A DNA stretch of 64,000 nt from Candidatus Latescibacterota bacterium (GTDB taxonomy: Bacteria > Latescibacterota > UBA2968 > UBA8231), in NCBI GenBank assembly GCA_965208105.1, contig OZ242318.1, forward strand, positions 2,592,001 to 2,656,000. The letters run 5' to 3'. Below the pieces are notes generated by a model. That model saw only the letters and a program-made list of their open reading frames with translations, had not been told where the DNA came from and did no database searches. The position numbers and the translations under genes were made by a program. The number at the start of each line of letters is the position of its first letter. Position 1 is the stretch's first letter. Positions 35,092 to 42,023 of this stretch are shown here, piece after piece.

Positions 35092-35560
35092 AGGCGTATC
35101 AGGCCCTCTATCCGGTGACCACGCTGTGCCGTGTGCTGGGTGTCTCCTCCAGCGGCTACTACGCGTGGCGCAAGCGGCGGCCCTCAATATGGCCCTGGCT
35201 CAGCGTCGACCGCAGGAGGTGATTCATCATTCCGATCAAGGCTGCCAATACACCTCCATCGCCTTTGGCCAGCGCTGTAAAGCCGCGGGAGTACGGCCGT
35301 CGATGGGCTCGGTGGGCGATTGCTTTGACAATGCCCTGTGCGAAAGTTTCTTTGCTACCTTGGAATGCGAACTCATAGATCGCTATACCATTCGCTCCCA
35401 AGCCCAGGCTCGCATCGCCCTTTTTCGTTTTATCGAGGGTTGGTACAACCCCCATCGCAGCCACTCGGCCATAGACTATATGTCGCCCATCAGCTATGAA
35501 GAGAGATGGAAGGAAGGTCTGGAAATCTCAAGTCCAAAACCGTCCACCAAACCGGGGTAA
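35088..35560 (+). pseudogene. IS3-family OrfB with internal deletion
   Basis: N-terminus (LCRVLGVSSSGYYAW.KR) is joined out of frame near 35185 to ALNMAL..HHSDQGCQYTS..DNALCESFFATLE..WYNP.R.HS; the first catalytic Asp region is missing. Confidence 0.85.
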
Positions 35561-35565
35561 CTCCA

Positions 35566-38124
35566 TAGAGCGAATTCTTTGCCCTCCTTGATTCGCTGAT
35601 TAATGAGTTTCTTGCGCAAGGCTCCGGTTCCGGCCAGTGCCACCTCGTCATCACGGAGCGAGAACCATTCCACTTCCGGTTGCTCGATCAGGTCCCACGG
35701 CGGGTTGCCGATGACCGCGTCGAAGCCTCCCCGGGGTCGGTCGCTCTGCCAGTTCCGCCACACCCCTGGAAAGGCCGCCTCCCAGTGCAGGAAGCCTTCC
35801 TGGCCGGCGAGAGTGCAGGCTTCGTTCCAGCGCTCGCTAAACATCGTCCAGGTTTCGACGTCTTTATCGGGCGGCTCGCCGCCCAGGTGGTTTGGTCCCC
35901 GCGCCAGAAGCTTATACGCTTCCGCCGGCTGGCGGCCGAGCGTAAGGTCCAGCGGCCCCTCGAAGGCGTCCCGTTCCTTCTTCTTCATCCCCGCCGTCAG
36001 CCAGCGCCAGCCGCAGAGGATATCCAGCAAGCCGCGGAGGTCCGCGGTCGTCTTCTCTACCACCTCGAACAACTCTGCCGATTCCCGCACCTCGGTCACG
36101 TCGGCATCGGACATTTCCTCGATGCGCTGCATGCCCTCCGTGGCCGCCTCGGCCCCGGCAATAGCACTTTGGGCGAACATCCTGGCCAGGCGGTACAGGT
36201 CCTTTACTGCCTGCCCCACCCGCAAGCCCACGAGGGAATCGCCGCAGCGCAGGTGGTGGTCGAGGAAGGAGAGGGGCGCGCCCACGGTGAAGCTGTGCAA
36301 CCACAGCGACACCTTGGCCAGCTCGACGGTCAGACGGTTCTTGTCCACCCCGTAGATGCAGCGCTTGAGCACCATGCGGCGGATGATGGCCTGGTCGGTG
36401 AGCTGGGCCTCGTCCAGGACCCACCGGGCCTCAGCCGCCCGTTGTTTTATTTCGGCCCGAATCTTCGCTACTCGCTGCACCAGCGGCGAGGCGTAGTCTC
36501 CGTCGAGCCACTCCGGGACCGCCGGAACGTACTCGATGAGCTCGGCGATGTAGTCGGAGAGGAAGTCCACCGCGGTGACCAGGAAATGGCCGCTGCCCAT
36601 GGCGGGGTCCAGGACCTTGAGGTCGAGGACGGCCACCGCGGGGTCGAGCATCTGGAGTTCGGCCTGGCGTTTCTCCCTGGAACGGCGGTCCCTCTTGAGG
36701 TCTGCGGCCTTGTCCTCGAAGGCCCTGAGACGCTCTTCTGCCAGCGGCTTCAGGGTGCGATCGACTATCAGGTCAACCAGGTCCTGGGAGGTGTAGAAGC
36801 TGCCGCTGTCCTTGCGGGCGTAGGGATTGGGGCGGATGACGGTCTCGCCGTTGTCGTCCCGCACCGGCTCGCGCTCGAGCAGGCGCTCGTAGATCGAGCC
36901 GAGCTGCTGCACCGACATGTCGCGGTAGTTGATGAAGCGGCGCCGGCCCTGGGCGGAGGGGGCGTGACTCAGGTCGTAGATGATGGGAGCGACCTCGTCG
37001 TCGGCCAGACGGACCTCCTCCAACAGGGGAGCCGCCTCCGTAGCGAACAGCCCGCCATTGTAGGGCGGCAGACCGATGGATGGATCGCCCTTGTCGATGA
37101 GCGAGAACAAGGTCGTCAGATGGTTGTAGTAGGTGCTGGCCTGGGTGGAGAAGATATCGTTCGCTACCATCCTGGAGGCGATGTGATCGCGAACCGGCTT
37201 GCGCAGGCCATAGTCGTCGTAGCGCGCGTCGTTGACCGGCAGCAGACCGCGGTCCTCGGCGTATAGCACGAAGAGCAGACGATAGAGGAAGATCAGCGCC
37301 GCCTCCCGGCTATCCGCGAGGCCCCTCTCCGATTTCCGGGCGAGAGCATCGACCAGGCGGGGGAAGACGCGCTCGAACACCACGCTGGATAGATCCTGCG
37401 CCACCTGGTCCTCGTAGCGCCGGCCCTCGGCCAGCGCCGCTTCGAGAAAGGTGGTCGTCGCACCGTCCCTCAGGGTGAAGGAGTTGCGGTGAAACAGCAG
37501 GAAGAAGGTCCTCAGCCCATCTTCACCATCTCCTTCCCGCAGCCCGAGCAGAGATCCCAGGTCGGCTTCGAAATAGCCGCTGGCGCGAGGCCGGGCGCGG
37601 TAGTCGTAGAGACGCCACACACTGCCGTTGGTGAGGATGCCCCATCGCATGCGGCTCTCCGACTCGATGTCGGCTGTGGAAAGGTACCTGAGGATTTGGC
37701 CGTGCGGCGTCCTGGCCTGGACTTTGTCGTCCCGGTCCCGGTCGTCCAGGGACAGCCCGAAGCGCTTGCTCTCTTCAACCGCCGCGGCGAAGCGGAACCG
37801 GTCTCCGGCCATCGGTTCGGCGGCGGCCGCCTGCTTGGCGGCGGAGTCGGCGAAAAGCAGACGGTCGGGTATGTCCTCGTTGCGGGCAACGCCCTGCTGC
37901 GGCAGGTAGTCAGACCACCCAAGAAGCTCCAGCGCCGGGCGGATCAAGTCCTGCTCGGTGACCGCTTCGTTGGGGCCATGAGACCGGCGCAGGTCCTCGT
38001 GGCGCCGGGCGACGCCGCTCCTGAACGCGGCAAATGCCTGCGGCCGGTCAACCGAGGCTTTCCACTCGGGCGTTTCCTTAATGCCGTCAGTGAGGAAGTA
38101 GTGAGTGAACAGCTGACCAGGCAT
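35566..38124 (-). pseudogene. Type IIG / Eco57I-like restriction-modification enzyme, 3'-truncated by the IS3 element
   Basis: PD..EESK nuclease-like motif, WGILTNG..WRLY, PYNGGLF, LGSIYERLL, GSFYT, LDPAMGSGHF (motif I), IGNPPW (motif IV); frame runs into the IS about 40 codons after NPPW. Confidence 0.85.
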
Positions 38125-38145
38125 GTCAGCTACCAACGCTGGCGC

Positions 38146-38391
38146 TCAGAATTGCTGCGCATAGATGTCCAGAACTTTGCGGATCATACTTTGGTAGGGG
38201 ACCCCGTTCTCCCGCGCTTTTACCTTGAAGAAATCAACGCTCCTTTTGTTGAGGTTGAGCGTGACCCGCACGGTTTCCTCTCTTGGAACGAGTTGGTCGG
38301 GCGGCGGCAGGAAATCAGCAACCACCTCTGCCTGATCGATCGCTTCTGCAATATCAAGAGGTGCTTTCTCATATTTTCTTTTATTGTTCAT
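38146..38391 (-). CDS. BrnA/CopG-family antitoxin
   Basis: DFLPPPDQLV..ETVRVTL.L..SVDFFK..A....PYQSMIR.VLD.YA (ribbon-helix-helix). Confidence 0.8.
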   Translation of the reverse strand: MNNKRKYEKAPLDIAEAIDQAEVVADFLPPPDQLVPREETVRVTLNLNKRSVDFFKVKARENGVPYQSMIRKVLDIYAQQF

Positions 38392-38476
38392 AACGCTTCG
38401 CTCCTTCGCGCCAGTAACCGGCACCAAAAATGCGGATATTGCCTCCTCGATAAGTAAAGAGTGCATATTGATACAT
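38381..38476 (-). pseudogene. BrnT-family toxin C-terminal remnant
   Basis: Manual translation MYQYALFTYRGGNIRIFGAGYWREGAKRYEQ*, overlapping the antitoxin start; resembles BrnT C-termini. Confidence 0.7.
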
Positions 38477-38835
38477 ATTTTTATACATATATTTTAAGCC
38501 CATGTCAAGATCTCACAAGTCGACCGGGGAACCTGGTCTTTCGGGCAGACCTGTTGGTACTTCGGCATTTCCACTTACATCAATGATGCAGACCGAGATT
38601 CTGCGCGCCTCCTCTGGAGAAAGAATCGCTTGCAATCGCTCTTTCAACTCTATGGCGTTGCTCGGAGAAGTGCCTGAGGGAAGGGACGCCGCGGCGGGTC
38701 AACCGGTGGATATCCAGCGGCAAGGATAGGGCATCGTGCCAGTTGCCTGTACATCACCGAGGCAAGTGCATCACATGCAGGCTGTCGATCAACTGAGGCC
38801 CTGTGTTGGAGTTGTTCGATCAAGGCACGGTTTTC

Positions 38836-39561
38836 TCATTCGTCCTCGACCACATGCCTGTTCATCTGTTGGACCAGGGGTGGCATCCGGTCCCGCACGC
38901 TGCGCTTCATCAAATGCCAATCACCGGCCCCGGGGTCCATCCACGACGCGTAATACGTAACTCCCACCCCCACGCGGTGCTTGTCCGCGGTGACATTGGC
39001 CCCGCCGCCATGCCAGATAGAGCCGTGAAAAATCACGGCGGACCCCGCCGGCCCCTCGGCGGCAACCAGGTGTTTGTAATCCACCCCGGCTCGAGGCACT
39101 CGGCGCGAATGGTGGCTGAAGGGCATCAGCCTGGTCGCGCCGTTCTCGAAGGTGAAGTCGGTCATCATCCACATACTGTTGACGATGAAACAGGCGTCCG
39201 GTACCGGCAGGCCGGATTGGGAGAACCAGCCTATGGGCACATCTGCGTGGAGCTTCGGCTCTTTTGCGCCCGGCTTGATCCAGATGGCGCCGACTGAACC
39301 GCCCAACTGAAACTGCGGTCCGAGCATATGCTCCGCCAGCTCCAGGTAGACCGGGTTGGTGACGAGCGGAACGAAGGTGTCCTGGTCATCGATATTCAAC
39401 AGGCCTTGCTGACCCTGGTTCAGTTGATTCGCACTCGGTTGCCGGTTCAAAATTTCCATCACCCGTTTTGCCATGCGGTCTGCTTCATCGGTGGGAATGA
39501 GGTTGGGTATGATGACGAAGCCATATTCTTCCAGCTCGATCTTCAACTGCTCGACGTCCAT
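38836..39561 (-). CDS. Phytanoyl-CoA dioxygenase (PhyH) family Fe(II)/2OG oxygenase
   Basis: EYGFVII, LHAD (HxD), DFT.ENGAT...P.SH, WHGGGAN, R. Confidence 0.9.
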   Translation of the reverse strand: MDVEQLKIELEEYGFVIIPNLIPTDEADRMAKRVMEILNRQPSANQLNQGQQGLLNIDDQDTFVPLVTNPVYLELAEHMLGPQFQLGGSVGAIWIKPGAKEPKLHADVPIGWFSQSGLPVPDACFIVNSMWMMTDFTFENGATRLMPFSHHSRRVPRAGVDYKHLVAAEGPAGSAVIFHGSIWHGGGANVTADKHRVGVGVTYYASWMDPGAGDWHLMKRSVRDRMPPLVQQMNRHVVEDE

Positions 39562-39590
39562 ACCTTCCTCCTTTCCAAGATACAAGGTCT

Positions 39591-39754
39591 AGTGTCCCGT
39601 CGCAGAGATAGGTTGACGCAATTGGGCCGCCGAGGCGCCAGGCTCACAAGGCGCCTGAGCAAGCCGTACCAGTGGTGTACGGCGAGTGAAGGCAACGCCG
39701 TGAGCCGGGATGGATCGGCGGAATAATGACGACATATTTCTGCCACGGGACACT
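39591..39754. mobile_element. 164-bp MITE-like hairpin element (copy B); its right CTAG is split by the IS110 element
   Basis: TIRs 39591-39610 and 39735-39754 match 18/20; inner stems GGCTCAC/GTGAGCC and GCCGTAC/GTACGGC; left CTAG at 39589-39592. Confidence 0.8.
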
Positions 39755-39825
39755 GATATGTATTGACGGTTGTCAACCCCCTCCGGGGTGGTCGTTTCGG
39801 GTGTTATCTTTGCATGAGTTTGTTC

Positions 39826-39994
39826 GGGAACAGAAGGGACGCTGTAGCGACGGTTGATCCGACTGATATTCGCGGGTTGGTTACCGCCTGTCCTGGGTGC
39901 GTCGCGGAGCGGCCTCAATCTAGAGTCGAGGGTCAGCCTGATAGGCGCCTCATAGTGTCTTCGAGGATTCTCCTGACCGGTCCCTTCTGTCCCG
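39826..39994 (-). ncRNA. Putative bridge RNA / seekRNA of the IS110 element
   Basis: 11-bp closing stem (39830-39840 / 39980-39990) encloses two stem-loops with large internal loops; loop segments GACACUA and AUAUCAG equal the reconstituted target and the element junction. Confidence 0.75.
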
Positions 39995-40047
39995 TTTCGA
40001 TTTACATGAGCAAAGGTCCTATGCCGGCTTCTGAGACGATGAGCTTA

Positions 40048-41187
40048 TCAGGCGGCGATCCGAGGCCTCCTGGCCACGAGGCGGCCGGGGCGTTTCTGCT
40101 CCCAGGCGATGGCCCAGATGAAACCCAAAAGCTCCCGCGCGATCGCGCAGCACACCTTGTTCTTCGGCATCCCTCGCCCACTCAGCCGTCGATAGCGTCC
40201 ACACAGGCGTTTCTGTGCCTTCCAGGCGATGGCCTGTATGGGGGGTGCGGTCTGTTCGGCGCGTCGTTGCAAGGCGGCCGTCTTGCGGGCGGGAAAGCGA
40301 TAGCACCAGGCCGCTTCCACCAGCACGCGCCGCACGTGGGCGTTGCCCGCCTTGGTGATCGCCCCTCGCTTTTGGCGGGAGCCGCTGGAATGCTCGCTGG
40401 GGACCAGACCGACGAAGGCCATCAGTTGGCGCGGCGAGTCAAAGCGGGTGAGGTCCCCCAACTCGGCCAGGGTCGTAACCGCGGTGAGCGTGTCTACCCC
40501 GCGCAGCGCCCTCATAGCCCGCGTCTCCCCTTCCAAAGACCATCCCTCCAGCGCCTGCTGCAGGGCCTGGTCCAACCCCTGGATCCGACCTTGGGCTTCC
40601 TGTACCGCGTCCACGTATTCCTGAAAGACGATCTGCTGGGCCGGATGATCGAAGCGCTGGGTCTGCAGCCAGCGAAAGTGGGCTTGGGTCCAGCGACTGC
40701 GCCCGGAGTAGATCCGGCCGTGGCGCTGCAAGAAGCTGTTCAGCCGCTGGCGCACGCGGCGCTCGGCGTGCTTGAAGTCTTCCCGGCAGCGCTCCAGATC
40801 GCGCATCGCCTCCTGCGCTTCGTCGGGCACCCACACGGGGGTCAACTCGCCGTGTTGGAAAAGCCGCACCAGAGACACAGCATCGCGGCGGTCGGTCTTG
40901 ATGCGGTCGCCCGGCCGACGCGGGATCAGCGAGGGCGCCACCACCGTGCAGGCGTGCCCCAGGGCTGTGAGCTGACGGTAGACGCCGTAGCCGCAGGGTC
41001 CGGCCTCGTAGCAAAACCGCAACGAGGTCCCACCACGGGCCAGTTGGCCCGCCAGCTTGGACAACGCGGCGCCCGTAGACGGTATCGTTCCATACAGGTC
41101 TGGCCCTTTTCGGCCTTCACCGGCCAGGGCGACGGTGATCGAATCTTTATGTATGTCCAAGGCGACGAATTTCGTAGATTTACGCAT
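40048..41187 (-). CDS. IS110-family transposase/recombinase
   Basis: RuvC-like DEDD residues (ALDIHK, CYEAGPCG, KTDRRDA); C-terminal GLVPSEHSSG with catalytic Ser, ITKAGN, AIAREL. Confidence 0.95.
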   Translation of the reverse strand: MRKSTKFVALDIHKDSITVALAGEGRKGPDLYGTIPSTGAALSKLAGQLARGGTSLRFCYEAGPCGYGVYRQLTALGHACTVVAPSLIPRRPGDRIKTDRRDAVSLVRLFQHGELTPVWVPDEAQEAMRDLERCREDFKHAERRVRQRLNSFLQRHGRIYSGRSRWTQAHFRWLQTQRFDHPAQQIVFQEYVDAVQEAQGRIQGLDQALQQALEGWSLEGETRAMRALRGVDTLTAVTTLAELGDLTRFDSPRQLMAFVGLVPSEHSSGSRQKRGAITKAGNAHVRRVLVEAAWCYRFPARKTAALQRRAEQTAPPIQAIAWKAQKRLCGRYRRLSGRGMPKNKVCCAIARELLGFIWAIAWEQKRPGRLVARRPRIAA

Positions 41188-41305
41188 GGCCTCCTCCTTC
41201 TCGCTGGGGATAGGTCTTTGGGTGAACTCCGTTTTCCCAAAGATAACCCCCGACAACCGAGTCGGAGGAGGTCTTTCATATCTCCGTCAATACATAAGGT
41301 CTAGG

Positions 41306-41779
41306 TCAATGTTTGGTTGATCTGGGTGTTATCCGATTGTCAAGTCCGGATTTGTGAAACAACGCCATCGCCCTAACTATCACTTCCAAATGTTTATCCT
41401 CCATTTGGTCCAATAGCCCAATAATCCGCTGTCGGCCCAAGCGCCAGAATTGTTCCAGCTTCTCTCTTCCTTTGTGCGTGAGTTGGCAGACTACGACTCT
41501 GCGGTCATGTTCATCCGATACGCGCTCCACAAGCTCTTGTCTTACCAGGCGGTCTACAGTGCTAGTCGTAGCCGAGAAAGTACCGCCCAGGTATCTGGAT
41601 ACAGTGCCCATTCGCATGGGCCCCAATTGTTCCAAAATTACCATAGTTTTTATTTGAGGAACGGTCATGTCGAGGCCAGGCCAATTTTCCAGATGGCCGC
41701 TGTACATCCATCGGCACATATTTTCCGCCTCATTTGCAAGCCGCTCGATTATTTCCTTCCGGTATTTACCTTGCATCAA
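41306..41779 (-). CDS. MarR-family transcriptional regulator
   Basis: MTVPQIK, T..VDRLV...LVER..D..DRRVV.CQLT.KG. Confidence 0.88.
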   Translation of the reverse strand: MMQGKYRKEIIERLANEAENMCRWMYSGHLENWPGLDMTVPQIKTMVILEQLGPMRMGTVSRYLGGTFSATTSTVDRLVRQELVERVSDEHDRRVVVCQLTHKGREKLEQFWRLGRQRIIGLLDQMEDKHLEVIVRAMALFHKSGLDNRITPRSTKH

Positions 41780-41840
41780 CTCCCTTCCTTAGAGGACAGT
41801 TTGCGATGATTATCATTTTTGATTTACTCTGTGCCTTCAA

Positions 41841-42023
41841 GCCCAGGTCAAAGCCTTTTATGACAAGCTCATCACCGCCGGCAAAAGCCGATGCAGGCCA
41901 TTGTCGCCGTGATGCGAAAGCTGTTGCACGCTATCGGGGGAGTATGGAACTGCAACCAGGATTTCGACGGCCGGAAATTTCACAGAATGGCCGCATAGTC
42001 CCCTTACCTATTAGAGAGTATCT
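41841..42023 (+). pseudogene. Second IS110-family transposase C-terminal remnant with right end
   Basis: VKAFYDKLI.AGK / PMQAIVAVMRKLLHAI.GVW...QDFDG.KF..MAA* (frameshifted), followed by GAGAGTATCT. Confidence 0.7.

Follow-up and report, generated by a model that had tools for sequence, protein, structure and literature searches.

An IS1111-type insertion sequence with a predicted guide RNA downstream of its transposase gene, whose first loop tracks the target and whose second loop probably tracks the donor junction

The 2024 literature describes bridge RNAs and seekRNAs as guide RNAs of IS110-family insertion sequences, and in it Durrant et al. (2024, PMC11208160) predict bridge RNAs for 93% of IS1111 elements. 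In IS621 (Durrant et al. 2024, PMC11208160; Hiraizumi et al. 2024, PMC11208158; Hiraizumi et al. 2026, PMC13626964), the bridge RNA contains two internal loops of two strands each, which read opposite DNA strands around a CT/AG core. The structure of this system shows a flipped-out U159 paired with A131 beside the left donor guide, as well as a discontiguous right donor guide (RDG) (PMC11208158, PMC13626964); discontiguous RDG pairing was also described by Durrant et al. (PMC11208160). The IS1111 elements ISEc11, ISPa11, ISKpn4 and ISPst6, as described by Siddiquee et al. (2024, PMC11187229), encode a DEDD transposase with a GL-P----S(t)G motif, have subterminal inverted repeats, leave a long stretch downstream of tnp non-coding, and carry a long RNA of 145-170 nt that holds a target-reading part of 70-100 nt. 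In these seekRNAs the match to the top strand comes first (5') and that to the bottom strand second, whereas IS110-type RNAs have the opposite order; the targets are repeated structured sequences (REP, attC). The published seekRNA model has the transposase mRNA and the long RNA co-transcribed from a promoter formed in the excised circle (PMC11187229). The subterminal inverted repeats of the IS1111 group measure 7-17 bp and are accompanied by short terminal extensions (PMC11208160), and natural retargeting was described in both 2024 papers (PMC11208160, PMC11187229).

Here we analysed a candidate system of this kind in the window, by which we mean the whole 64,000-nucleotide stretch of DNA under study. 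Based on comparative evidence, we propose that the minus strand of positions 39826-39994 very probably encodes the guide RNA (long seekRNA or bridge RNA) of an active IS1111-type insertion sequence. This element resembles ISEc11, ISPa11, ISKpn4 and ISPst6 in its transposase motif, its subterminal inverted repeats, its long non-coding region downstream of tnp, its long RNA holding a shorter target-reading part, the order of its two guide strands and its use of a repeated structured target, but has a 379-aa transposase (330-350 aa are quoted for IS1111 transposases) and lands at the tip of a MITE-like repeat, a comparison made by description (PMC11187229). With IS621 it shares two internal loops of two strands each around a CT/AG core, a putative right-donor-type guide that appears discontiguous, an intra-loop RNA-RNA pair (U159-A131 in IS621, alignment columns 135/165 here), core-adjacent positions matching the partner DNA (here a handshake-like A after UCUAG) and a promoter, here a computed one, assembled at the circle junction (PMC11208160, PMC11208158, PMC13626964). 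Unlike in IS621, the RNA lies 3' rather than 5' of the gene, the guides for the top and the bottom strand come in the opposite order, the subterminal repeats are long, the target-guide footprints are shorter (~3 + 2 + 4-5 nt) and the donor loop is far less variable among relatives (PMC11208160, PMC11208158, PMC13626964). A further IS1111-type element is known to use the terminal inverted repeat of a Tn3-family transposon, and both cases have the terminal repeat of a mobile element as a specific target that is entered in one orientation; by description, they differ in that the host element here is a non-autonomous repeat of ~168 bp. ISPpu9 of Pseudomonas putida likewise crosses over at an AG dinucleotide that both junctions carry and inserts into a genomic repeat family (REP), but belongs to the IS110 group, lacks inverted repeats and has a downstream sRNA, Ssr9, that is described as dispensable and not as a guide (PMC12288879).

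Table 1. Coordinates of the insertion sequence, its predicted guide RNA and its target in the window.
Feature	Position	Strand	Basis or relation
Whole insertion sequence, 1546 bp, plus one AG core copy	39755..41300	(-)	Ends from 13 left and 13 right genomic ends
Left target flank CCTAG, with AG core copy at 41302-41301	41301..41305	(-)	
Left subterminal inverted repeat TATGTATTGACGG, 4 nt inside left end	41284..41296	(-)	13 nt, 100% complementary
Transposase gene, 379 aa, ATG at 41187, stop included	40048..41187	(-)	
Bridge/seekRNA (predicted), long form ~170-190 nt: outer stem, target-loop module and donor-loop module	39826..39994	(-)	
Target-binding loop module GGAG...CUCC, ~68 nt, comparable to short seekRNA	39906..39973	(-)	Helices 33-36/116-119, 40-43/109-112, 56-63/77-87 of the 61-sequence alignment
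5' target guide GACACUA	39953..39959	(-)	Reverse complement of transposase-sense T-AG-TGTC (target -1, core, right flank +1..+4)
3' target guide UCUAGA	39919..39924	(-)	Same sense as left flank YCT, core AG and first left-end base; would pair with the bottom strand
Donor-binding loop module (putative), closed by GCGACG/CGUCGC, inner hairpin CGG-UAACCAAC-CCG	39847..39905	(-)	Helices 120-125/176-181, 139-143/152-155
5' donor guide (putative) AGGACAG	39888..39894	(-)	Discontiguous complement of C-AG-ACCT (right-end last base, core, left end +1..+4), 5/7
3' donor guide (putative) AUAUCAG	39863..39869	(-)	Equals right end ATATC plus core AG, 7/7
Right subterminal inverted repeat CCGTCAATACATA, 2 nt inside right end	39757..39769	(-)	13 nt, 100% complementary
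AG core copy, right junction	39753..39754	(-)	All right ends are followed by AG
Target: MITE-like repeat, ~168 bp, with 12-bp terminal inverted repeat CTAGTGTCCCGT holding the insertion site	39589..39754	(-)	

The placement of the element in the IS110 family with IS1111 architecture is supported by Pfam and NCBIfam membership of its transposase, by its subterminal repeats and by covariation of the RNA and of guides with flanks. The transposase matches PF01548 (DEDD_Tnp_IS110, E 6.5e-13) and PF02371 (Transposase_20, E 1.8e-22), both above the gathering cut-offs, and scores 263.6 bits against NCBIfam NF033542 'IS110 family RNA-guided transposase' (cut-off 140). Its translation carries GLVPSEHSSG, the G(L)-P----S/T-G motif with the catalytic serine found in the IS110 family. 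The perfect subterminal repeat of 13 bp falls within the IS1111-group range, and the non-coding DNA is longer 3' of the transposase gene (293 nt, 40047-39755) than 5' of it (113 nt, 41300-41188), as in the IS1111 layout. With the element boundary marked by a caret, the 13 genomic left ends read NNN(C/T/G)CTAG^ACCTTATG and the 13 right ends CATATC^AGTG..., one of them being diverged. AG precedes every left end, follows every right end and is the sole sequence common to both junctions, which identifies it as the core (CT when read on the opposite strand). A prior interpretation made without database searches (hereafter the sequence-only reading) had described an IS1111-type element with its guide RNA 3' of the transposase and a CT/AG core; the class, the core and the inferred ends, which read ...YCT-AG^ACCTTATG and CATATC^AG-TGTC in the genomic copies, all agree with the evidence given here. 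A named relative of this IS clade may already be present in the table of predicted bridge RNAs of Durrant et al.; among the matches listed in a literature search with the subterminal repeat string, all were unrelated. A second inverted repeat (39797-39812 / 41238-41253; 16 nt, 94% complementary) lies ~45-60 nt from each element end. As a candidate for a conserved long-range pairing it was rejected, being confined to the window lineage (also L016 and L018) and absent in more distant relatives.

To compare the RNA among relatives, we used a scan with one genome per species, which returned 233 transposase relatives; the best 80 of these 233 loci (57-85% identity) were retained. The RNA region was found by blastn downstream of the gene in 78 of these 80 loci. 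A covariance model and an RNAalifold consensus were built on 61 distinct sequences, and the model matches 77 of the 80 related loci, always on the strand of the gene, 60 of those sequences having contributed to the model. At two of the three loci without a match the contig ends at or just after the gene, and the third is L094. The minimum free energy (MFE) fold comprises an outer stem of 14 nt (39993-39980 / 39840-39827), an internal loop that CCUC/GAGG close on both sides, and a second loop bounded by GCGACG (39905-39900) and CGUCGC (39852-39847). Both closures had been proposed from the sequence alone and are present, the first as a symmetric 11+11 internal loop that RNAalifold extends to 12+12, and the guide strings GACACUA (39959-39953) and AUAUCAG (39869-39863) lie where they had been read on the minus strand.

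The comparative evidence for the fold is strong. Standard pairs occupy 91.4% of cells in the 61-sequence alignment, compared with 34-45% when the 3' partners are slid, and compensatory changes occur at 23 of 38 pairs, values that none of 500 shuffles attained. The helix 120-125/176-181 illustrates this, with a GC pair changed to AU in 23 sequences and to CG in five. Many G-U pairs are compatible with the minus (gene) strand only. The region thus has the conserved structure with compensatory changes that characterises seekRNAs and bridge RNAs. Alignment with homologous 3' regions had been put forward as a check on the sequence-only reading; it reveals covariation both within the fold (23/38 pairs) and between guides and flanks (0/10000 permutations).

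Judged by these sequence relations, loop 1 is the target-binding loop, as both of its guide strands track the insertion-site flanks across relatives. Its scaffold, GGAGAAYCCUCG...(C)UAUGAGG...GACCCUCGA...UAGA..GAGGCAGCUCC, is nearly invariant in the alignment and encloses two hypervariable stretches, one of ~8 nt in the 5' strand and a shorter one of 3-4 nt in the 3' strand. Guides were compared with flanks using one insertion per distinct guide, a count in which out-of-register rows lower rather than raise the cognate values. Over 31 distinct guides, 128 of 186 positions of the 5' guide are Watson-Crick complementary to the right flank (+1..+6); the per-position rates are 0.84, 0.74, 0.81, 0.81, 0.58 and 0.35, compared with 0.25-0.35 in non-cognate pairs. 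For the 3' guide, 62 of 99 positions over 33 guides are identical to the left flank (-2..-4). Neither value was reached in 10000 permutations (0/10000 for each strand), so that the target appears to be read by two strands, as in seekRNAs and bridge RNAs. The same relation can be followed in individual relatives, such as those pairing AGGCUCCU with AG^GAGCCU, GGAAAUCU with AG^AUUUCC and CUUCUAGAC with CTTCTAG^AC. In L067, a T-to-A change before the core is mirrored in both guide strands (UAAGA, CCCUU), and 10 of 10 positions are complementary. Within the loop the top-strand match lies 5' of the bottom-strand match. The expectation that loop 1 would read the target, with GACACUA as the complement of T-AG-TGTC and with loop sequences covarying with targets, is hence borne out for both strands.

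All 12 copies in the genome have an identical 5' guide, and the 3' guide occurs in three variants. In the window's 3' guide, a U opposite the bottom-strand G permits CCTAG as well as TCTAG. The match of the window's 5' guide to its habitual target ends at +4 (TGTC): the next guide bases, AAG, would require TGTCTT and the repeat has TGTCCC. A site matching the longer guide (TGTCTT) occurs once in the genome, as CTAGTGTCTT, and the 5' guides of relatives often match to +5 or +6. On the other strand, GACUCUAG had been matched to the left flank as GAC-CTAG. The (U)CUAG(A) portion of this match is the guide and is in register, whereas the GAC portion is coincidental, since GA belongs to the conserved scaffold CCCUCGA. 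A few relatives depart from the usual core-adjacent sequence. The 5' target guide of L045 ends in GCA rather than CUA, and its right flank AG^CTAGTCAT matches the guide only with a two-base shift; L062 and L064 also have a GCA guide ending, together with a CAAG left flank. These GCA guides may represent variant core-adjacent bases or off-target insertions.

In the genome, a single contig of 4.85 Mb, the covariance model finds the downstream RNA complete at 12 places and incomplete at one. The IS110-transposase model yields 14 matches, which comprise 10 intact ORFs, one shortened ORF, one split ORF (two matches) and one other IS110-family gene. Element copies are 95-100% identical, and the element has therefore moved recently. 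Directly after the right end in the window lies a 166-bp sequence (39754-39589) with 130 blastn matches in the genome, of which 87 are close to full length. Free copies have CTAGTGTCCCGT at their start and ACGGGACACTAG at their end, which identifies a MITE-like repeat of ~168 bp with 12-bp terminal inverted repeats. The IS is inserted within the first four bases of the terminal repeat (CT-AG^TGTCCCGT), at either end of the repeat, and in a constant orientation in which its RNA-bearing right end always faces the repeat. Ten of the 12 IS copies occupy repeat tips with the target YCTAG^TGTC; the other two are at non-repeat sites (AG^TGTTGTG and AG^TGGTCGC). Another 87 CTAGTGTC sites are free, 65 of which continue with CCG like the repeat, and ~10% of MITE-tip sites in the genome are occupied (10 of about 97). 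CTAG is depleted ~ten-fold genome-wide (1649 sites, ~16956 expected from base composition), and the repeat therefore supplies most landing sites.

The repeats mostly end within CTAG (some within TTAG or CTAA), a pattern that would be consistent with duplication of TA at CTAG. Among 189 terminal-repeat-like sites checked in the genome, no autonomous parent with a transposase was found for the repeat. One pair of such sites 2.8 kb apart was considered as a candidate parent and discarded, as it encloses an FtsW/RodA-type gene and a TPR gene and no transposase.

Loop 2 probably reads the circle junction ...CATATC-AG-ACCTT..., as suggested by the match of AUAUCAG to the right end and by its variation among relatives. 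This 3' strand is nearly invariant in the family, as are the element ends. In four loci from two lineages guide and right end have changed together: AUACCAG occurs with ATACC^AG in L037, L047 and L090 (one lineage), and AUAACAG with ATAAC^AG in L025. However, in L053 (AUCUCAG) and L073 (AUACCAG) the guide has changed and the right end is still ATATC; the right end of L071 was not located. The proposal that loop 2 is a donor loop is accordingly supported only in part: its 3' strand equals the right-end junction and covaries with it, though not in those two loci, and its 5' strand matches only discontiguously.

The 5' donor strand reads GUCAG in most relatives and complements C-x-G-A-C of the junction, that is, the last base of the right end, the second core base and left-end bases +1 and +2, with an A opposite the first core base throughout the family. 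Across relatives it does not consistently track left-end positions +3..+5. In the window lineage (the window and L016-L019) the strand is AGGACAG, of which AGG fits the left end (A)CCT of that lineage; relatives with the left end ACAT mostly have AAG or AUG where the window lineage (ACCTT) has AGG. A39891 faces left-end base +1 (A), and the window lineage has U, not A, right after AUAUCAG. The two positions form alignment columns 135/165 (A39891/U39862), which hold U-A in 47 sequences, A-U in five (the window lineage) and no pair in eight. The swap is compensated inside the RNA, and left-end base +1 is still A. The 5/7 match of AGGACAG to the left end AGGTCTG, noted in the sequence-only reading, needs to be seen differently: its register is that of the family, one mismatch (A against the core A) is near family-wide, and the other is lineage-specific and compensated within the RNA. 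By analogy with IS621, the 5' donor strand would be a built-in discontiguous guide and not a product of decay. We also raise, tentatively and as somewhat short of an even chance, the possibility that the strands of the donor loop are held by an RNA-RNA pair beside the core (column 135/165), a position that would then be kept for the fold of the RNA and not for reading DNA, which would make it the IS1111 counterpart of IS621 U159-A131. If so, the apparently mismatched 5' donor guide would be discontiguous by design.

Two other roles for bases of this loop were considered and rejected. A reading of the right flank (TGTCC) by the window's 5' donor strand is contradicted by the retention of GGACAGG in L016-L018 despite their different target guides, and a handshake of U39862 with right-flank base +1 by L017, which retains the U although its flank starts with A.

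As an alternative to a donor-reading loop 2, only loop 1 may guide DNA, as in the short seekRNA model, with loop 2 acting as a protein-binding scaffold or a processing module. The AUAUCAG match would then reflect shared conservation, and the ends would be recognised by the protein via the subterminal inverted repeats. Such a division of labour would accord with ISEc11, for which a 70-100-nt seekRNA with target matches only was sufficient, and Siddiquee et al. left the role of the long RNA and the recognition of the ends open (PMC11187229). It would also accord with the broken match between guide and right end in L053 and L073 and with a 5' strand that does not follow left-end +3..+5; moreover, loop 2 is almost invariant among relatives, so that there is little covariation to test. 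Nevertheless, at one position guide and right end have undergone an identical substitution in two independent lineages (L037/L047/L090 with T to C, L025 with T to A), the guide of the lineage with the left end ACCTT has AGG where ACAT relatives mostly have AAG or AUG, and donor-complementary loops are reported for IS1111 elements inspected by Durrant et al. (PMC11208160). We consider it rather unlikely that guiding is confined to loop 1.

Two further explanations would remove the guide function from the RNA altogether or the target from its flank. The structure could be an ordinary 3' UTR element of the transposase mRNA, involved in stability, termination or translational control, with flank matches that arose by chance. 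Its single-sequence folding energy is indeed unexceptional for its composition (z = -1.38), no Rfam family was matched in a scan of 38500-42000 against Rfam 15 at E <= 1, and the flank matches in the window are just 5-7 nt long. This explanation is disfavoured as very improbable, however, by guides that covary with flanks over 31-33 distinct guides (0/10000 permutations), by the restriction of hypervariability to two loop strands within a highly conserved scaffold, and by a guide order and geometry like those of published seekRNAs. Alternatively, the 166-bp repeat, which adjoins the right end in 10 of 12 copies, could be part of a longer composite IS and the apparent target match an internal self-match. 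This is refuted by the 87 near-full repeats, most of them without an IS and, where free, beginning with CTAGTGTCCCGT, by the occurrence of the repeat beside the IS in either orientation, and by the two IS copies at sites without the repeat.

For the preferred interpretation, a guide RNA with a target loop and a probable donor loop, we propose the following mechanism. The RNA would be made as the 3' part of the transposase transcript, which would start in the excised circle from a promoter whose -35 box is supplied by the right end and whose -10 box by the left end, and would be bound by the DEDD/serine transposase, as expected from the family. Loop 1 would present its two guide strands around the shared AG core: GACACUA, complementary to the transposase-sense target strand T-AG-TGTC, could pair with that strand, and UCUAGA could pair with the opposite strand of the left side, covering YCT-AG and, in a handshake-like position, the first left-end base. 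The guides would thereby aim the element at YCTAG^TGTC, here the tip of the terminal inverted repeat of the ~168-bp MITE-like repeat. In loop 2, AUAUCAG (right end and core) and AGGAC-A-G (discontiguous complement of core and left end) would probably read the circle junction. Recombination at the AG core would then insert the circle in one orientation, with the RNA end beside the repeat. The locus may be a complete, potentially reprogrammable recombinase system, as proposed in the sequence-only reading.

The predicted circle junction is CATATC-AG-ACCTTATG, as the sequence-only reading had proposed. In the integrated element, a scan for sigma-70 promoters returned none. When right end, AG and left end are joined computationally, most relatives give TTGACA, a spacer of 17/18 nt and CATNAT, matching at 10-11 of 12 positions; the window lineage gives a weak version with a 19-nt spacer (TTGACA-19 nt-CCTTAT, 9/12). 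Such a computed junction promoter fits the published model of co-transcription from the circle, and the first bases of the left end may be conserved because they double as a -10 box. Three metatranscriptome libraries from three studies contain contigs that match parts of the element, among them parts of the RNA region, at 90-99% likeness; since such libraries can hold DNA and contigs reveal neither transcripts nor their starts or ends, this coverage speaks neither way on expression. The joint from 39755 back to 41300 that marks the circle was not listed for the assembled contigs of four sequencing runs, which does not argue against circles, as contigs drop rare forms. In the transposase 5' leader (minus strand), CCUCCUCC can pair with the ribosome-binding site GGAGGAGG (41181-41203 / 41258-41280), and a terminator-like hairpin at 41268-41247 is followed by U-rich sequence. 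Leader pairing and hairpin could shield the transposase gene from outside read-through transcription.

The general picture of how these systems work is unchanged: bridge and seekRNAs have been known since 2024, and most IS1111 elements were already predicted to have them in that year. The locus is nonetheless a clean natural example in which the element ends, the core, both target guide strands and the genomic class of target can be read from sequence, and the ~60 distinct RNAs of its family show natural retargeting. It provides a case in which an IS1111-type element lands on the tip of a MITE-like repeat, and adds comparative evidence on the IS1111-type donor loop, a point left open in the seekRNA paper (PMC11187229). 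If the intra-loop pair does make the 5' donor guide discontiguous by design, the family would constitute a compact, naturally diversified guide set (31 distinct 5' guides) in which retargeting could leave the donor loop untouched. The features most worth retaining are the clean correspondence of guide and target, the MITE-tip target and the compensated intra-loop pair of the donor loop.

Beyond the element, the insertion separates a MarR-family regulator gene (41306-41779, minus strand) from a PhyH-type dioxygenase gene (38836-39585). The TGA stop of the former (41308-41306) lies 3 nt before the AG core copy and 5 nt before the left end at 41300. Farther along, an ORF at 35494-38136 (minus strand) encodes 880 aa, including the NPPW motif that typifies N6-adenine DNA methyltransferases, and is adjoined by a small CopG-like ORF (38146-38466); the 880-aa ORF is possibly a restriction-modification or defence gene. 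Elsewhere in the genome, a solitary partial copy of the RNA gene (G000:C1:3931291-3931443, 59 bits with the covariance model) consists of the half with the donor loop plus a right end that has diverged, and lacks a transposase gene; a different IS110-family transposase remnant or gene is found at G000:C1:2143757-2144482 (263-aa open frame, 139.9 bits). At G000:C1:2949519 (minus strand), a diverged left end, ACTTTATGTATTGAGGG, follows CTAG; no full element in the blast list corresponds to it, and it is possibly the remnant of a related IS.
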